From Minisyncoccia bacterium (GTDB taxonomy: Bacteria > Patescibacteriota > Minisyncoccia > Phycocordibacterales > UBA5272), in the NCBI GenBank assembly GCA_038256975.1, contig JBBSJU010000003.1, forward strand, positions 4,807 to 68,806: 64,000 bases of DNA, written 5' to 3'. Made by a program: the position numbers and the translations under genes. The notes beneath the pieces were generated by a model. The model was not told the origin of the DNA. It was given only the letters and a program-made list of their open reading frames with translations, and ran no database searches. Position 1 is the stretch's first letter. Each line of letters starts with the position of its first letter. Below, one piece after another: positions 2,392 to 45,757 of the stretch.

Positions 2392-4347
2392 TTAAATTAG
2401 AACAGCTTTTATGCGACGTATACCTGCACTCACTGCTTCTTCTTTTTGAATTTTAAATATTCCAAGGACTCCTAAGTGTTCAACATGCGGACCGCCGCAG
2501 AATTCAATAGAGTAGAGATTACTATCCCCTCTTTTTTTACCTTCTCCGATACGATAAATACTCACCACATCACTATATTTATCTTCAAAAAGTCCAATTG
2601 CTCCACGAGCCTTTGCTTCTTCAAATGAAACTTCTTCACGAGTCACAGGTAAATCTGCCTGTATTTTTGAATTAATAATGTCTTCTACTTTCTTCTTTTC
2701 CTCGTCGGTCATTTTTGTATCGTGTGAGAAGTCAAAACGGAGACGTTCAGGTGTAATGTTTGAACCTTTTTGAAACACATGCTCGCCTAGCACTTCACGA
2801 AGCGCTTGATGAAGAAGGTGTGTTGCTGTGTGGTATTTTACTTCCATTTCCCCATCACCTCCAAGTCCACCTTTGAATTTTCCAGCTGATGCGGTGCGAG
2901 AGCTTGCAGCATGAGCTTCTTTAAGTGTGTCGAATTCAACTCGATCCACTCTACCTTTTTTCTCTTTTACAATCTCCTCCGTAAGTTCAATAGGAAAGCC
3001 GTCATTCTGCCATAAGTCAAACGCTATTTTTCCAGACAAAACCCACTCAAGCACTAAGTTTGGATCAAAATTTTCTCCAACAGAATCAAGTTTTGCCCAA
3101 GCTTCATCGCCTTTGTCTCTAGCTATTAATTTTTCAGTTTTCTTGAGACCATTTTCAAGTGTCTTTCTAAACTTCTCTTCTTCTTTGGTTATTTCGTTCA
3201 ATATTTCAGCTTTCTTTGTTTCAAGATTTTTGTACTCATCTTTATAGACTTGAATAAATGAGTCGGCAACTTTTGCACAAAAGTTTGTATGAATATCAAG
3301 ATTACGAGCGAAGCGCACCGCGCGGCGAATGAGTCGGCGCACAAAATAACTTTGGTCTTTGTTTCCTGGAAGCACGCCGTCACTAATTAAAAATGTTGCG
3401 GCACGAATGTGATCGAGAATAACTCGAAAAGCATACTGAGCCGTGCCTTGATACGTTTTACCTGAAAGTCGTTCGATCGTTGCTTTTGCAACATCAAACA
3501 CATCCATATTAAACACATCAGCATCATTTTGTGTTGCTGCAGTCATGCGCTCAAGTCCACCGCCAAAGTCTACATTTTGCTGTGCGAGTTTTTCAAAACC
3601 ATTTTCTGTTTTAACGTACTCCATGAAGACATTGTTACCAATTTCCACAAAACGTCCGCAATCGCAGTTTACGTGGCAAAATTCGCCACTCCAAGCTGTG
3701 TTTGGAATACAACTTCGTCCAAGGTCTGGATAGAAGTCGTAAAACATCTCAGTATCTGGGCCACCTGGCTCACCCACTGGCATATTTCCTGGTACTCCTG
3801 ATCTACTCCACCAATTTTTCTTTTCAGGATAATAAAAAATTCGTTCACCAACTTGTATACCGTCAACTTCAGGATTCTCACCTATTTTTGCATCAACCCC
3901 TTTTGTTTTAAAAAGTTTTTGCCAAAGTTCTGCTGACTCTGTATCTTTTGGAATTCCAAGAGACTCATTTCCCTTGAAACAAGAAAAATAAAGACGTTCG
4001 TGGTCGAGTTTAATTTCCTCTGTCAAAAATTCCCACATCCACGGAATTTGTTCTTGCTTAAAAAAATCACCAAGTGACCAGTTTCCAAGCATTTCAAAAA
4101 ATGTTGTGTGGCGATTGTCACCCACTTCCTCTATATCCTGACTACGAAAACATTTTTGAGAATCCGTAATCTTTGTTCCAAGTGGATGCTTTTGCCCTAA
4201 AAGGTATGGCACCATCGGCTGCATTCCAGAGCCTGTAAACAAAGTCGTTGGGTCATTTTCTGGCACGAGCGGAGATGAAGGAACAATTACGTGCCCTTTC
4301 TTCTCCATAAACTTCAAAAATAACGATCGTAGCTCGTTTGTTTTCAT
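2392..4347 (-). CDS. alaS: alanine--tRNA ligase, short form lacking the C-terminal C-Ala domain
   Basis: N-terminal class II catalytic core (LFTGSGMQPMVPYL). Editing-domain HxxxH motif (HTATHLLHQALREVLGEH). Only 651 aa versus ~870 for canonical AlaRS. Confidence 0.9.
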   Translation of the reverse strand: MKTNELRSLFLKFMEKKGHVIVPSSPLVPENDPTTLFTGSGMQPMVPYLLGQKHPLGTKITDSQKCFRSQDIEEVGDNRHTTFFEMLGNWSLGDFFKQEQIPWMWEFLTEEIKLDHERLYFSCFKGNESLGIPKDTESAELWQKLFKTKGVDAKIGENPEVDGIQVGERIFYYPEKKNWWSRSGVPGNMPVGEPGGPDTEMFYDFYPDLGRSCIPNTAWSGEFCHVNCDCGRFVEIGNNVFMEYVKTENGFEKLAQQNVDFGGGLERMTAATQNDADVFNMDVFDVAKATIERLSGKTYQGTAQYAFRVILDHIRAATFLISDGVLPGNKDQSYFVRRLIRRAVRFARNLDIHTNFCAKVADSFIQVYKDEYKNLETKKAEILNEITKEEEKFRKTLENGLKKTEKLIARDKGDEAWAKLDSVGENFDPNLVLEWVLSGKIAFDLWQNDGFPIELTEEIVKEKKGRVDRVEFDTLKEAHAASSRTASAGKFKGGLGGDGEMEVKYHTATHLLHQALREVLGEHVFQKGSNITPERLRFDFSHDTKMTDEEKKKVEDIINSKIQADLPVTREEVSFEEAKARGAIGLFEDKYSDVVSIYRIGEGKKRGDSNLYSIEFCGGPHVEHLGVLGIFKIQKEEAVSAGIRRIKAVLI

Positions 4348-41086: not shown

Positions 41087-41158
41087 GGCCCTATCGTCTA
41101 GTGGTTAGGACAGCGGGTTCTCAATCCGTCAACCGGAGTTCGACTCTCCGTAGGGTCA
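41087..41158 (+). tRNA. tRNA-Glu (anticodon CTC), CCA not encoded
   Basis: Acceptor ggcccta/tagggtc. D-arm tcgtctagtggttaggaca, typical of Glu/Gln tRNAs. Anticodon loop ttCTCaa. T-arm cggag-ttcgact-ctccg. Discriminator A. Confidence 0.85.
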
Positions 41159-41171
41159 CACGTACAAAAAA

Positions 41172-41195
41172 CGCTGCGCAGGCAGCTATTTTTGT
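41172..41195 (+). terminator. short hairpin + T-run downstream of tRNA-Glu
   Basis: gctgc-gcag-gcagc followed by tatttttgtt. Confidence 0.35.
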
Positions 41196-41196
41196 T

Positions 41197-41244
41197 GTGT
41201 GACCCTAAGCAAGCAAACTGCTTTGCTTGCGTCGGAGAGTCGAA
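41197..41244 (-). repeat. inverted partial copy of the tRNA-Glu 3' end (T-loop through acceptor 3' strand, 22 nt) split by a 25-nt hairpin insert
   Basis: The reverse complement of 41197..41244 is ttcgactctccg + acgcaagcaaagcagtttgcttgct + tagggtcaca. The tRNA 3' end at 41139..41160 is ttcgactctccgtagggtcaca. Confidence 0.6.
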
Positions 41245-41355
41245 AAGCTTTTCCATGTTTTGAGAATCTTTGATACGATAAAACAGGAAAAGGTGTACTG
41301 CGACTGTAGGTCGAGACTCTCGTTTAATCACCATCAACAGCTAGCACCAGTAGCG

Positions 41356-41388
41356 TACAAAAACCTCCTATTTGGAGGTTTTTGTACT
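41356..41388. repeat. perfect 14-bp-stem palindrome gtacaaaaacctcc-tattt-ggaggtttttgtac upstream of gene A
   Basis: Direct inspection. Could act as a bidirectional terminator or operator. Confidence 0.55.
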
Positions 41389-41392
41389 TGTG

Positions 41393-41424
41393 AAAAAAAA
41401 TTGAAAAAGTTATATAATCTTTTT
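41393..41424 (+). promoter_or_regulatory. AT-rich promoter-like region with TATAAT hexamer ending 8 nt before the ATG of gene A (near-leaderless)
   Basis: ttgaaaaagttatataatctttttATG. A -35-like ttgtga/ttgaaa lies upstream. Confidence 0.3.
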
Positions 41425-42318
41425 ATGAAAACCATGTTTACAGACAAATTTCCCGACGACATGAAATCTAACACGGAGCTCGAAGCAGTAAAAATTAAAT
41501 ACCCTAATTATGACGACTATTACGTTGCGAGCGGATCGATAAAAGAACGTAGAGAGAGGTTCGATGAAATGTATCAAATATATGCTCCATATGCGGATAG
41601 ACATTTTCTATCAGATCTCAAAAAGCAATTTCATCAACGAACGTGGGAGATGTATATTGGATATGTTCTTGTAAAAAACAGTGTTATTTTCACCTCGACC
41701 GACAAAGGCCCAGATTTTCTTATAGAAACTCCTGGCGGAAAGATTTGGATTGAAGCAGTTGCGTGTGGTCCAGGAGAAGGACCAGATCGAGTTCCTGCAA
41801 TGGTGTATGGTGGAGTAAGTAACGTCCCTCAGGAAGAAATGATCATACGTATAGTTAGTAGTCTTGATTCAAAGTATAAAAAATTTAAAAAATACCTAGC
41901 TGACGGTATTGTGTCTCCGGAAGATAAATTGATAATTGCCGTAAACGCAGGCGGATTTTCACACATTGTTGACGGAGATATGCCACTTATTTTAAAGGCA
42001 ATTTTTGCCATTGGCCACAAAACACTGTCATGGCCTATAAATTCTGATCATAGTGTTCCTGGAAAATCAGGTGTTTCGACCAGAAATTTTATCGAGAAAA
42101 GAAATGGGAGTAAGGTGCCGACAACTTTTTTTCTTGAAGAAGACCATAAAATAATCAGTGCCATAATGTATTGCAGTAAAAACATACTGAATCATGAAAA
42201 TCCCCCTGGGATAGATATTTCAGTTGTGAGAAACTACATCGCTACCAATTCACTCCCAGAAACTGAGTTTCCGTTTATGGATTATATTAGTACAAAAAAC
42301 GGAGAAATTCTAATATAG
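41425..42318 (+). CDS. hypothetical protein (islet gene A), possible PD-(D/E)xK-like nuclease fold
   Basis: 297 aa from ATG 41425 (MKTMFTDKF...). The track ORF starts at 41227 but would span the palindrome and tRNA fragment. GPDFLIETPGGKIWIEAVA is weakly reminiscent of a D...ExK motif. No confident family. Confidence 0.5.
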   Translation: MKTMFTDKFPDDMKSNTELEAVKIKYPNYDDYYVASGSIKERRERFDEMYQIYAPYADRHFLSDLKKQFHQRTWEMYIGYVLVKNSVIFTSTDKGPDFLIETPGGKIWIEAVACGPGEGPDRVPAMVYGGVSNVPQEEMIIRIVSSLDSKYKKFKKYLADGIVSPEDKLIIAVNAGGFSHIVDGDMPLILKAIFAIGHKTLSWPINSDHSVPGKSGVSTRNFIEKRNGSKVPTTFFLEEDHKIISAIMYCSKNILNHENPPGIDISVVRNYIATNSLPETEFPFMDYISTKNGEILI

Positions 42319-42322
42319 TACA

Positions 42323-43450
42323 TTATTGAGGTTGCTTATCTTTCAAAAAGTTTAATAGGCAGTGACGAACAAGCGATTCAAAGAAATGGGCGAATGGTAA
42401 TTTTTGCGAACCAGAAAATGATCTATTGTCGATAGTCATACCCATACTTGGATCGGTATCCCAAGTCCTAGCCTCTTTCATTCTTAGTGGCATACTCAAG
42501 TACATTGATTCGCCACTATGGAGATACGCAGATCTGGCACTATATATGGTTTTTAGTGTCGGAACTAAGGCATCTTTTCTTATTTTACAATGTTCGGCTC
42601 TAGATTTTCCGCCTTTAAAAAATCTTGTGCAATATTTTTTAATAAAGGAAACAAAACGTAACTTAGAATTCCTGACAGAAAAAATCTCCTTCAATTTATC
42701 CTGTTGTTCTTTTGACAAACTAGTGACATCCACGATTTCGTGTATTTCCCTTGCACTAAAAATATCCACTGAAGAATCCATATCTATATACTTACTTAAA
42801 ATTTCTACGGCCGAAACAAGTCGAATGAATACCATTTCGGTGTCTAGACTAACTTGTCTCAAGGATTGTAAATATTGAAATGATGCCCATAAGAAATCTT
42901 GATGGAACTCCGTGGGTAGAGATCTGATCTTGTCTAAAAATTCAACAAGCCCAACACTAAAACTACGGGTCTTGTCTGAAAAAATAGTCGGATGAATCCC
43001 ACCTTCTGTACGCCTGTATTTTAAATATCTTTCGGATCGATGTTTTTGTCCATTTGAAAAAATGGTACTAGTCGCAACGATATAAAATCTGCATTGAAAA
43101 TATAAAGAGAATAAAGATATAAATTCTTCTGCCACCCCCTCCTTAAAATAGTAACCGCTTTTGTGGACATCTAGGTAACGCGAGTCGTTCTGTTCTCCAT
43201 GTGTGGCAGACTTTATTCGGAGAAGATATTTATATAAACCATTTTCATCTTTTTCAAAAGTTAAAAATGAACATGAAATTAACCCTTTCTCGTAATCAAG
43301 CCCGCCGGTTATACGGCATTCAGTGGCAATTTCATATTCTTCAAAATACTGATCTTTCTTTTTTCTAAATTTAACACAGTCAATATGCCTGACCCAGGAC
43401 ATTCTATTGTCTAGTTTTCTTCTGACTATGGACATATCTAAATAGTACAC
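42323..43450 (-). CDS. hypothetical protein (islet gene B) with C-terminal Rx4H HEPN-like motif; candidate abortive-infection/defence RNase
   Basis: 375 aa. C-terminal TIYSARSAYLHSGE matches the R-x4-H HEPN motif. Convergent with gene A, stops 4 nt apart. Confidence 0.45.
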   Translation of the reverse strand: MYYLDMSIVRRKLDNRMSWVRHIDCVKFRKKKDQYFEEYEIATECRITGGLDYEKGLISCSFLTFEKDENGLYKYLLRIKSATHGEQNDSRYLDVHKSGYYFKEGVAEEFISLFSLYFQCRFYIVATSTIFSNGQKHRSERYLKYRRTEGGIHPTIFSDKTRSFSVGLVEFLDKIRSLPTEFHQDFLWASFQYLQSLRQVSLDTEMVFIRLVSAVEILSKYIDMDSSVDIFSAREIHEIVDVTSLSKEQQDKLKEIFSVRNSKLRFVSFIKKYCTRFFKGGKSRAEHCKIRKDALVPTLKTIYSARSAYLHSGESMYLSMPLRMKEARTWDTDPSMGMTIDNRSFSGSQKLPFAHFFESLVRHCLLNFLKDKQPQ

Positions 43451-43508
43451 TCCCCCTCCCTAAACCCCAAAAGCCCCCAACACGGCCTTCCCCCCAAAGA
43501 TACATACC

Positions 43509-43582
43509 CAAATAAAAAACCCACCAAATTTGGTGAGCATTCTTGGTCTAAGGTGACATGGAGTCACCTTAGACCACTTTTT
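43509..43582 (-). terminator. tandem-hairpin terminator downstream of islet gene C
   Basis: 13-bp perfect stem ggtctaaggtgac-atgga-gtcaccttagacc. Second hairpin caccaaatttggtg. On the minus strand a gggttttttatttggg T-run follows. Confidence 0.55.
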
Positions 43583-43590
43583 CGGCAAGC

Positions 43591-44181
43591 CTAGCGCTTA
43601 CCCTTCTTGCCGCTGCCTGCACTCGCACCTTTACGAGCCTGGCATTCGCCATTCCTAGCAGCATGGTTCGCCCAGCGACGACTCTCGACACCGGCTGCTT
43701 TTGCACGGGCGGTTTTGCCCGTCGAGGCGCGTTGTTTCAGCTTGAGCCAGGCGGGAACGTCCATACTTCGCGGCAGAGACTTCGGCTGGAGGTCGTTGAA
43801 ATAAACCGACCAGCCATTTTTGTTCTCGAACGTACAGTTGACCAGCTCCTGTTCCGGACTACCGAAGAATCGGTAGGAGAACGCTCCGGGTTGCAAAAGC
43901 ATATTTTCGATGCCGGCAGCGGCAACCATCTTACTTGCTTTCGCGAGCAGCCAGGTTGCCCCGATTGCCCGGATGTCGGAGACCTTGAGGAGAAAAGCGT
44001 TCCCCTTGCCGGTAAACTCACGACCCGTGTCGTGAGCAAAAGTTGCGTTCACGAGGAATGACCCTGATGACTGAATGATTCCCCGATCATTCAGTCGCAC
44101 CAGAGTCATTCGAGGATCGTTGACCAGATCATCGAATGAGATCCATGTGCTATGCTTTGTCACAACGTTCATGTTGTTCAT
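43591..44181 (-). CDS. hypothetical protein (islet gene C), 54% GC, with Lys/Arg/Ala-rich basic C-terminal tail
   Basis: Start at ATG 44181, preceded by strong SD AGGAGA with a 5-nt spacer (MNNMNVVTKH...). The track ORF extends to 44220. GC is ~17 points above the genome background. The C-terminal 45 aa are highly basic (KQRASTGKTARAKAAG...KGASAGSGKKGKR). Confidence 0.5.
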   Translation of the reverse strand: MNNMNVVTKHSTWISFDDLVNDPRMTLVRLNDRGIIQSSGSFLVNATFAHDTGREFTGKGNAFLLKVSDIRAIGATWLLAKASKMVAAAGIENMLLQPGAFSYRFFGSPEQELVNCTFENKNGWSVYFNDLQPKSLPRSMDVPAWLKLKQRASTGKTARAKAAGVESRRWANHAARNGECQARKGASAGSGKKGKR

Positions 44182-44376
44182 GGTTGTCTCCTGATAGCTC
44201 CATCGAACCCTTATCCCCATGAAGGAAAGGTGGAGGGGTCCTTGACCCAGATTGGAAGTTTAGTCCGACCGTTCGAAAGTCTTTATGGACAAACTTGGGA
44301 AATATTTCCCGAAAAATATCTAAATAATTAGTTTTTAGGTTCTTTTCAGGAAACATTTCCTTTCAAAGATCAGGCT

Positions 44377-44418
44377 GTATACTAATACCAGTATACTATA
44401 TATACATAATTTTGTCAA
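44377..44418 (-). promoter_or_regulatory. consensus sigma70 promoter TTGACA-17-TATACT with palindromic operator overlapping the -10/TSS, driving islet gene C
   Basis: Minus strand reads ttgacaaaattatgtatatatagtatactggtattagtatac. The palindrome gtatact-aatacc-agtatac (44377..44396) overlaps the -10 box. A ~200-nt 5' UTR follows. Confidence 0.5.
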
Positions 44419-44446
44419 GTATAGCCTCCCTTGTATTAATAGGACG

Positions 44447-45757
44447 TTACCTCCCCCTCCACTCCTCGTTCTGCCGTACCAAAAGTTCATCTTTCATTTC
44501 TGGATATCGCAAGAGTTCTTCTGTAGCACGTTCCATACGAATACCTTGAGAGGCTTTGAGAAGCACTACGTCCCCTTCTTCTAGTAAACTCTCAGCAAAT
44601 TTTCCTGCACTACGCGAATCTTCAAACTGAAAAATATTATCCTCGTGCATACCATCATTAAGCGCACCTTCGACAATAAAGCGTGCTCGCATACCAACAG
44701 TAATAAGCTTGTGTGCTGCCTGGCTTGCGTCTTTGCCGATTTCTTTATGTACTCGTTCAGTATGTTTACCAAGCTCAAGCATGTCACCTAAAATTGCTAT
44801 TTTCTTTCCTCGGACTTCGATTTCCCGCAGAGTCTCGAGAGCGTGCTTCATAGCTTTGGGAGCAGCGTTGTAAGTGTCATCAAGAAGAATTGCGCCCTTC
44901 ACACCATCTAAGATCCGCATTCGCCCAGATTCTGGCGTGTATTCTGAAAGTGCGTTATCAAGAAGCGTGAGATCAACATCAAGCACTTGGGCAACAGCAC
45001 CCGCAGCGGCGCCTGCAGCAGCGTACACACGACCTAGATAGCCTTTGCGCTCAATATGCACCACTTTTCCATCCTGAGTGTGGAGCTCATACTGCATACC
45101 TGAAATATCTTTCTTTGTTTCGTCTTTTTTGTCGTACAAATATGAGTCGTTATGAATCGAAACGGTATTGTCTGCATTAAAGCCGAAAGTAACTTTTGTG
45201 TGCGTAATGTCTTCGGCAATTTTTGTTGCATCAGCATCATCGCCACAATATACAAAGACGCCGTCTTTTTTCAATGCTTGTGGCAGAAAAGCTTTTTCTT
45301 TGATTATAAGGTCGCGATTGTTTTGGAAATTTTCTATGTGTACTGGAGTCTCACCAAACTGAGTAAGTACCGCAATGTTTGGCTTGAGCCATTTTGTGAG
45401 TGTTTCGATATCACCGGGTGCGTCGGCACCAACTTCAAGCACCAGCCACGTGGGGTATTCCTCACGAACAATGAGACGGAGCGTACTTCGCACAAGAAGT
45501 GCAAGCCAGCCAAACGGATTACTCCACTGATTGTCTTCACCTAAGATAGTCAGCGGTACTCCTATTTCACTGTTAAAACTTTTGTAGCTTTTGCGGGCAG
45601 AATATGTGGTGGCGATGGCGGCAAAGATTGCATCTTTACTTGAAGTCTTACCAATATTTCCGGTGACAGCGATAATTTTTGGCTTATAGGCCTTAAGTGT
45701 TGCCTGAGCAAGGACGCGCAACAAGAATACAACGACGGGCTTAAAAAATGATTGCAT
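44447..45757 (-). CDS. murF: UDP-N-acetylmuramoyl-tripeptide--D-alanyl-D-alanine ligase
   Basis: IIAVTGNIGKTSSKD P-loop. Mur ligase domains. C-terminal LLKASQGIRMERATEEL is MurF-like. Confidence 0.85.
   Translation of the reverse strand: MQSFFKPVVVFLLRVLAQATLKAYKPKIIAVTGNIGKTSSKDAIFAAIATTYSARKSYKSFNSEIGVPLTILGEDNQWSNPFGWLALLVRSTLRLIVREEYPTWLVLEVGADAPGDIETLTKWLKPNIAVLTQFGETPVHIENFQNNRDLIIKEKAFLPQALKKDGVFVYCGDDADATKIAEDITHTKVTFGFNADNTVSIHNDSYLYDKKDETKKDISGMQYELHTQDGKVVHIERKGYLGRVYAAAGAAAGAVAQVLDVDLTLLDNALSEYTPESGRMRILDGVKGAILLDDTYNAAPKAMKHALETLREIEVRGKKIAILGDMLELGKHTERVHKEIGKDASQAAHKLITVGMRARFIVEGALNDGMHEDNIFQFEDSRSAGKFAESLLEEGDVVLLKASQGIRMERATEELLRYPEMKDELLVRQNEEWRGR

Follow-up and report, generated by a model that had tools for sequence, protein, structure and literature searches.

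The interval between a tRNA-Glu(CUC) gene and murF (41087-44450) in the window, i.e., the whole stretch of 64,000 nucleotides (nt) from a Minisyncoccia bacterium analysed here, contains two convergent genes, which we call gene A and gene B, and a GC-rich open reading frame (ORF). With a probability of about 0.6, we read this interval as a variable defence islet made of independently mobile single-gene cassettes, in which gene A would be a nuclease and gene B a HEPN RNase. The original prediction had described a convergent pair of 297 and 375 amino acids (aa) with stop codons 4 nt apart and had proposed that the two genes act together as an abortive-infection or toxin-antitoxin-like pair. The layout is exactly as described: gene A starts with the ATG at 41425 and ends with the TAG at 42316-42318, gene B runs on the opposite strand from the GTG at 43450 to its stop codon at 42323-42325, and the four bases 42319-42322 separate the two stops. 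Both motif strings named in the prediction are also present, TIYSARSAYLHSGE in gene B and GPDFLIETPGGKIWIEAVA in gene A. The proposed partnership fails, as set out below. The features that carry the argument are as follows, residues being numbered, where stated, from the last of the three candidate gene B starts (359-aa numbering).

41087..41159, + strand: tRNA-Glu(CUC) gene (ARAGORN; Rfam, 58 bits), one boundary of the variable site.
41425..42318, + strand: gene A, predicted stand-alone nuclease with a PD-(D/E)xK fold, 297 aa.
41647..41874, + strand: predicted catalytic core of gene A with E75, D97, E110, R142 and K150, from conservation and the structural model.
42323..43450, - strand: gene B, an N-terminal alpha/beta domain followed by a divergent HEPN domain, 375 aa.
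43013..43402, - strand: N-terminal alpha/beta domain of gene B, ~130 aa, a putative sensor or regulatory domain.
42326..42955, - strand: C-terminal HEPN-like domain of gene B, residues ~150-359 (359-aa numbering).
42518..42535, - strand: R-S-A-Y-L-H, the Rx4H motif and predicted RNase active site of gene B, from conservation.

The independence of the two genes is seen most directly in their distribution. Profile searches for gene A were made in 29 gene B loci (28 genome loci and locus L034), and gene B was sought in seven gene A loci (L029-L033, L038 and L039) whose gene A homologs are 65-90% identical. A gene A homolog adjoins gene B at none of the 29 gene B loci, the single related case being one distant gene A-like ORF that lies ~7 kb from the gene B homolog of L023, and gene B is present at none of the seven gene A loci, including those with homologs at 82%, 84% and 90% identity. 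Clustering of all neighbours of gene B homologs reveals no conserved partner of any kind, and the neighbours of gene A differ among L029, L030, L032, L038, L039 and the window, as expected of a single-gene element. The gene A of L039, which again follows a tRNA-Glu-like gene, has a DNA identity of 90%; the similarity to the window is confined to 41396-42320 and stops 2 nt past the stop codon of gene A. Given the absence of co-occurrence, the end of the L039 similarity directly after gene A, and the occupation of the same site by other genes at L037 (see below), gene A and gene B are, as far as gene neighbourhoods tell, independent and not a working pair, and the two-gene system is not real. 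The 4-nt convergent spacing is best described as the packing together of two cassettes.

Comparison of the site itself with related loci shows how its content varies. L037 matches the window at the murF end (44499-44448), at the GC-rich cassette (44420-43504, 79%) and at the 3' end of tRNA-Glu (41171-41130, 95%; the same end is 77% identical in L039). Between tRNA-Glu and murF, L037 carries a VTT-domain gene, a 343-aa gene, the GC-rich ORF and a 369-aa gene, and the 343-aa and 369-aa genes, which are unrelated to gene A and gene B, occupy their place. At L039, gene A is followed by several small ORFs. Judged from these alignments, the tRNA-Glu/murF interval is a cassette-swapping hotspot, and probably a small variable defence islet. 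Classic tRNA-targeted integration was considered as its origin and is unsupported, since no repeat of the tRNA 3' end flanks the island, where only short chance repeats are found; neither an integrase nor an attachment-site-like repeat is seen in the window.

Gene A can be placed among defence families by profile comparison. Against PADLOC it matches PD-T7-1 (E = 1.3e-14, model positions 142-343 of 452) and PD-T7-5 (E = 3.2e-13, model positions 43-234 of 346), and against PHROGs it matches phrog_8571 (E = 3e-24). Four members of the gene A family match PD-T7-1 and PD-T7-5 as well (E from 3.5e-5 to 5e-19), two plasmid relatives match the same PADLOC models more weakly, and relatives of gene A are found on Acinetobacter and Providencia plasmids. 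There is no match in Pfam or NCBIfam, searches of solved-structure sequences with both the single sequence and the profile return nothing meaningful, and tblastn finds no homolog of gene A or gene B in phage genomes, despite the phrog_8571 profile match of gene A. PD-T7-1 and PD-T7-5 are experimentally validated PD(D/E)XK defence genes (PMC10952713) that were recovered in the functional selection on the E. coli pangenome by Vassallo et al. 2022, and they are handled as single-gene systems in the literature. Gene A is thus probably a distant relative of anti-phage PD-T7-1 and PD-T7-5 within one broad family. By these matches it is recognisable as defence-family kin, a new distant member of a known family, and the earlier statement that neither protein belongs to a family that can be named stands for gene B, which no family model matches, and falls for gene A.

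The fold and the predicted active site of gene A agree with this placement. The suggestion that the block GPDFLIETPGGKIWIEAVA could be a degenerate PD-(D/E)xK nuclease core is borne out at that very block, where D97 (41713-41715) and E110 (41752-41754) fall. Neither they nor E75, R142 and K150 vary among 42 homologs, whose identities reach down to 25%. The AlphaFold2 (AF2) model built from the same 42 homologs, with a predicted local distance difference test score (pLDDT) of 93.3, has the alpha-beta-beta-beta-alpha-beta core of the restriction-endonuclease-like fold and places E75 on helix 1, D97 at the start of a strand, E110 on the next strand, and R142 and K150 on the following helix. Position 112, two residues after E110, is Val or Ile and never Lys in the homologs in which D97 and E110 are invariant, so that the catalytic Lys would have to be supplied by another position, probably K150 on the next helix. 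The closest structural matches of gene A are the CdiA-CT toxins (PDB 4g6v and 4g6u), at a sequence identity of 11-14%. We take the best of them, the CdiA-CT from Burkholderia, to be a tRNase.

Gene B represents a family that is both large and unnamed. Its homologs form 130 clusters in a 90%-identity database, and a 50%-identity library holds 1057 representatives at E <= 1e-3, 141 of them at E <= 1e-30 and most of them full length; the family is spread across phyla, e.g., Patescibacteria, Acidobacteriota, Omnitrophota, Nitrospira (Nitrospirota) and others. No HEPN-family model in Pfam, NCBIfam or PADLOC matches gene B even at E <= 10, the only match listed being Pfam DUF294_C at a non-significant E of 0.19; there is no significant profile match to ApeA, Abi_2 (AbiD/F), AbiU2, AbiJ, Swt1 or MAE_28990, and these assignments were rejected. 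Searches of PDB sequences with the single sequence and the profile give no meaningful match, and Foldseek comparison of the gene B model with the PDB gives nothing better than E = 0.88. Bridging to named HEPN families through 35 distant relatives was also tried and rejected, as it produced two marginal single matches only, among them one distant family member with a marginal match to Abi_2 (E = 0.0024).

The assignment of gene B to HEPN was made on its motif, its conservation and its modelled structure. HEPN domains are defined by an Rx4-6H motif with a polar residue after the Arg and by an upstream acidic residue (Anantharaman et al., PMC3710099). In gene B, the Rx4H motif is R290-H295 in the 359-aa numbering and R306-H311 in the 375-aa numbering; in R-S-x-Y-L-H-x-G, all positions but the two marked x show no variation among 105 homologs with identities as low as 34%, and the same positions are at least 90% conserved in the 35 more distant members, which are 20-42% identical. 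The polar residue directly after the motif Arg is a Ser. The upstream acidic residue lies in the stretch EMVFIRLVSAIE of helix 2, where E189, R194 and E200 are at least 90% conserved, the E189-x4-R194 spacing being x4 vs the typical Ex3[KR]. In the AF2 model (pLDDT 93.6; predicted template modelling score, pTM, 0.92), a ~130-aa N-terminal alpha/beta domain packs tightly on a helical domain with four long helices (164-182, 188-203, 276-296 and 338-355) and two inserts, one between helices 2 and 3 (helical, 220-257) and one between helices 3 and 4; Rx4H sits at the C-terminal end of helix 3. As the motif and the upstream Glu correspond to the HEPN definition and the model has four helices, we assign the C-terminal domain, with moderate confidence, to a very divergent HEPN. 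The predicted HEPN-type Rx4H motif is thereby upheld, as is its conservation among homologs, on which the prediction had staked the assignment. The N-terminal domain, in which Y59, G83, Y84 and E93 are invariant, has no informative structural relative in our searches; by profile comparison it is new, and the family has no existing profile model. Gene B belongs to a widespread unnamed family that probably cuts RNA, and it is likely a new HEPN abortive-infection family and the more interesting of the two genes.

The genomic surroundings of both families point to defence. Among the neighbours of gene B homologs are a BsaWI-type restriction-modification pair, an EcoRI-type methylase, an MmeI-type enzyme, helicases and DUF4209. 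PADLOC applied to 122 ORFs within 3.5 kb of gene B homologs finds, as raw counts, pAgo (4), SIR2-APAZ (4), ZacC (3), BrxH (3), DrmA/D (3) and DpdE (3), in addition to MADS components, PglX and type II methylases, such that restriction-modification, Argonaute, Zorya, DISARM and BREX genes are all represented. On the gene A side, the gene directly upstream of the 84%-identical homolog in L029 (65-2266) is a full-length PDC-S46, an AAA_13 ATPase and PADLOC candidate system (757 bits, E = 4e-228), and other gene A homologs neighbour a serine recombinase with an HNH protein or an integrase with an SNF2 helicase. Homology and neighbourhood together make the defence role that had been suggested for both genes plausible.

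Four observations weigh against the reading of the interval as an islet of independent defence cassettes. At L038, a stretch of ~55 nt (3890-3945) past a gene A homolog that is 82% identical at the aa level resembles the 3' end of gene B (42319-42371), with no gene B present despite this resemblance. This stretch may be what is left of a gene B that once stood next to gene A and was later lost, in which case the adjacency may predate this genome, leaving room for a loose functional link. Gene A lacks the canonical Lys at E110+2, where it has Val. It covers 45-55% of the PD-T7-1 and PD-T7-5 models at ~50 bits, which makes it a distant relative, or a sister family sharing the core domain, and no ortholog. 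The link to defence is guilt by neighbourhood and relies on counts that have no background rate beside them. The first of these observations feeds the idea that gene A and gene B are one two-component abortive-infection or toxin-antitoxin-like system whose partners regulate or complement each other, with a variant in which the nuclease and the HEPN RNase fire together and are regulated through convergent overlapping transcripts. The genes are indeed immediately adjacent and convergent, with no terminator in the 4 nt between them, both resemble defence nucleases, and the gene A-like ORF that L023 carries at a distance of 7 kb could be counted in its favour. This reading is nevertheless highly improbable: adjacency recurs at none of the 29 gene B and seven gene A loci, each family has its own distinct and variable neighbours, the related PD-T7-1 and PD-T7-5 act as single genes in the literature, and convergent genes cannot form an operon.

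Other readings concern one gene at a time. Gene A could be an orphan type II restriction endonuclease, a mobile-element nuclease acting in homing or excision, or an RNA-targeting toxin like CdiA-CT, and the recombinases and integrases near its homologs, as well as the partial PADLOC matches, fit such roles. There is no adjacent methyltransferase in the window or at six of the seven gene A homolog loci, the exception being L038, where a gene with a generic class I methyltransferase domain is found two genes downstream of the gene A homolog. Moreover, the best relatives at the sequence level are the validated PD-T7-1 and PD-T7-5, in matches that recur throughout the family, and a candidate defence gene, PDC-S46, adjoins gene A in L029, so that we consider these roles unlikely. 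That gene B is instead the toxin of a toxin-antitoxin module, with an unrecognised small ORF or RNA as antitoxin (as for AbiF), is quite unlikely in our estimate. Many HEPN toxins are restrained by MNT, RNA or a ParA-like ATPase (PMC3710099; DARNA preprint), gene B is preceded by an unusual non-coding leader rich in G (43451-43520), and a same-strand gene ends just ahead of many homologs; those upstream genes, however, belong to unrelated families and include no conserved partner, tandem repeats of the type III antitoxin kind are absent near gene B, and the tight packing of the N-terminal domain on HEPN, reflected in the pTM, fits regulation in cis as in ApeA. Some HEPN domains are non-catalytic (PMC3710099), and gene B might accordingly be something other than a catalytic HEPN defence RNase, which we regard as improbable: the strict invariance of the Arg, the following Ser and the His is the pattern of catalytic HEPN domains, the family has a patchy spread over unrelated phyla that resembles horizontal transfer, the gene is missing from close relatives at the same locus, and its neighbourhoods are rich in defence genes.

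As a plausible mechanism for the two independent cassettes, gene A would probably bind a metal through E75, D97 and E110, with K150 or R142 supplied by the following helix, and would on its own cleave the nucleic acid of an invader or, in an abortive response, that of the host, the substrate being either DNA or RNA. For gene B, the analogues are ApeA, DARNA (PD-T7-3), AbiD/F and PrrC; as in these, HEPN dimers would most likely join two Rx4H motifs into one composite RNase site that needs no metal. This site would remain inactive until a cue of infection is sensed by the N-terminal domain, upon which activated gene B would cut tRNA or other host or phage RNA, thereby stopping translation and aborting the infection. 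The strict conservation of Y59, G83, Y84 and E93 suggests that the cue is a conserved one and not a variable phage protein. Tentatively, and at somewhat less than even odds, we propose that gene B is the founding member of an undescribed, widespread single-protein abortive-infection system in which an alpha/beta sensor gates a HEPN RNase.

If this proposal is correct, the trigger of gene B would be a conserved small molecule or nucleic acid, and the gamma-glutamylcyclotransferase fusions found in Acidobacteriota (described below) would add a second effector or a signal-processing activity. The family is large, spans several phyla and is missed by Pfam, NCBIfam and PADLOC 2.0; its size and its compact new N-terminal domain make it a tractable candidate for a further sensing mechanism. 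Gene B would also lengthen the short list of immunity genes catalogued for uncultivated Patescibacteria-like bacteria, which have small genomes, and gene A would take the poorly characterised PD-T7-1/PD-T7-5 family far beyond Proteobacteria. The tRNA-Glu/murF site would be a clear case of cassette swapping at a small defence hotspot, and the practical lesson is that two adjoining nuclease genes are not evidence of one system.

The signals around the two genes were also compared with the prediction, which had both genes lacking a Shine-Dalgarno sequence and gene A preceded by a near-leaderless TATAAT. Three further features are involved.

41355..41387, + strand: terminator-like hairpin with a 14-bp perfect stem followed by a T run (inverted repeat I8), between tRNA-Glu and gene A.
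41390..41418, + strand: promoter-like GTGAAA-17-TATAAT (pattern scan, 10/12; putative function).
43519..43576: two terminator-like hairpins between gene B and the upstream GC-rich ORF (pattern scan, inverted repeat I10).

Gene A has no Shine-Dalgarno-like motif before its ATG, and in the pattern scan TATAAT lies at 41413-41418, 6 nt ahead of the ATG. The extended -10 element TATATAAT, followed by six variable nt and ATG, also stands upstream of the gene A homologs in L029, L038 and L039, and its fixed distance of 6 nt from the ATG suggests leaderless expression; the near-leaderless arrangement gains weight from this recurrence at three related loci. L029 and L038 keep the hairpin upstream of gene A, and the L038 copy has compensatory changes in its stem. 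Gene A seems to have a near-leaderless promoter of its own, insulated by the terminator ahead of it. Over the whole region, promoter-like patterns are in no excess, with 8 found vs 7.8 expected from shuffles. For gene B, the claim of a missing Shine-Dalgarno sequence does not hold, as GGAGG lies 4 nt upstream of the GTG at 43450. Candidate starts of gene B are GTG 43450, ATG 43435 and ATG 43402, the last giving the database version P0001 of 359 aa. Because homologs keep D-N-R immediately ahead of the Met encoded at 43402, and GGAGG precedes GTG 43450, the true start is likely 43450 or 43435 rather than 43402.

Directly upstream of the gene B start, on the sense strand of gene B, lies the G-rich non-coding leader (43451-43520). 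Its tract at 43451-43500 contains runs of GGGGGG, GGGGG, GGGG, GGG and GGGGG in an AT-rich genome and includes the GGAGG; this tract could fold into a G-quadruplex or serve as a regulatory leader. Beyond it, the GC-rich ORF (43591-44181, - strand, 196 aa; cassette 43504-44420) has ~55% GC vs ~38-40% in the genome, a strong AGGAGA ribosome-binding site, a basic C-terminal tail and two hairpin terminators after it. Among 5.8 billion clusters it has only two homologs (88% and 80% identity), with no family match, and in L037, too, the GC content of the cassette far exceeds that of some of the neighbours. A link of this ORF to gene A or gene B was considered and rejected, as it has only those two homologs and both lie in other contexts, which makes it a third independent cassette. 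Rfam finds only two tRNAs over the whole window, so the GC-rich stretch is no known RNA.

Members of the gene B family show some further variation in composition and surroundings. In Acidobacteriota, gene B proteins of ~530-540 aa carry a C-terminal gamma-glutamylcyclotransferase (GGCT)/AIG2-like domain (PF13772, PF06094), as seen in P0054, P0060, P0062, P0076, P0079, P0082, P0083 and P0093 and at L008 9770-11584; our literature search found no paper in which GGCT or AIG2 terms occur together with HEPN or defence terms. One distant gene B member carries a transglutaminase-like domain. At two Acidobacteriota loci (L006 6948-9946 and L023 8460-9962), gene B homologs lie immediately downstream of candidate pAgo/SIR2-APAZ ORFs, and a large DEAD-box helicase follows; the 503-aa ORF there has no Pfam match. 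These candidate ORFs probably account for the pAgo and SIR2-APAZ matches in the PADLOC scan, a batch scan that names no members.

Compared with known systems, gene A shares with PD-T7-1 and PD-T7-5 a profile-level homology across a ~200-aa core and the habit of standing alone in defence islands and mobile elements. Unlike these, it is shorter (297 aa vs models of 452 and 346), with N- and C-terminal parts of its own, and whereas they come from Enterobacteria or Acinetobacter, gene A comes from an uncultivated low-GC bacterium and is predicted to be anti-phage. The CdiA-CT toxins differ in that they are delivered and come with immunity proteins, while gene A would be cytoplasmic and stands alone, with no immunity gene.

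For gene B, the nearest analogue is ApeA, a HEPN anticodon nuclease (Gao et al. 2020; bioRxiv 10.64898/2026.01.26.701840). Both are single proteins in which non-catalytic N-terminal sequence is packed on a C-terminal HEPN domain that bears inserts, both have Rx4H in core helix 3 (bioRxiv 10.64898/2026.01.26.701840), and both are stand-alone genes of defence islands, often beside restriction-modification systems; the logic by which a pocket or sensor switches on the RNase is likely shared. The preprints on ApeA and DARNA give as infection cues dinucleotides from the breakdown of host DNA and single-stranded DNA bound by the phage single-stranded DNA-binding protein. Gene B is, however, not an ApeA: it matches neither the HEPN_Apea nor the ApeA models, it is 359-375 aa in total whereas HEPN ends at residue 583 in Ec2ApeA, and in place of the helical N-terminal and Mid domains of the three-domain ApeA architecture it has one alpha/beta domain of ~130 aa. 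DARNA/PD-T7-3, AbiD/AbiF (Abi_2) and PD-T4-5 would resemble gene B in being HEPN RNase effectors encoded by one gene, in which an additional domain governs activation. The Abi_2 and PADLOC models do not match gene B itself, and DARNA has its HEPN domain at the N-terminus and a large helical sensor at the C-terminus, such that gene B differs in both domain order and N-terminal fold. What these effectors and gene B would have in common is the outcome, an abortive infection, as proposed here for gene B by analogy.

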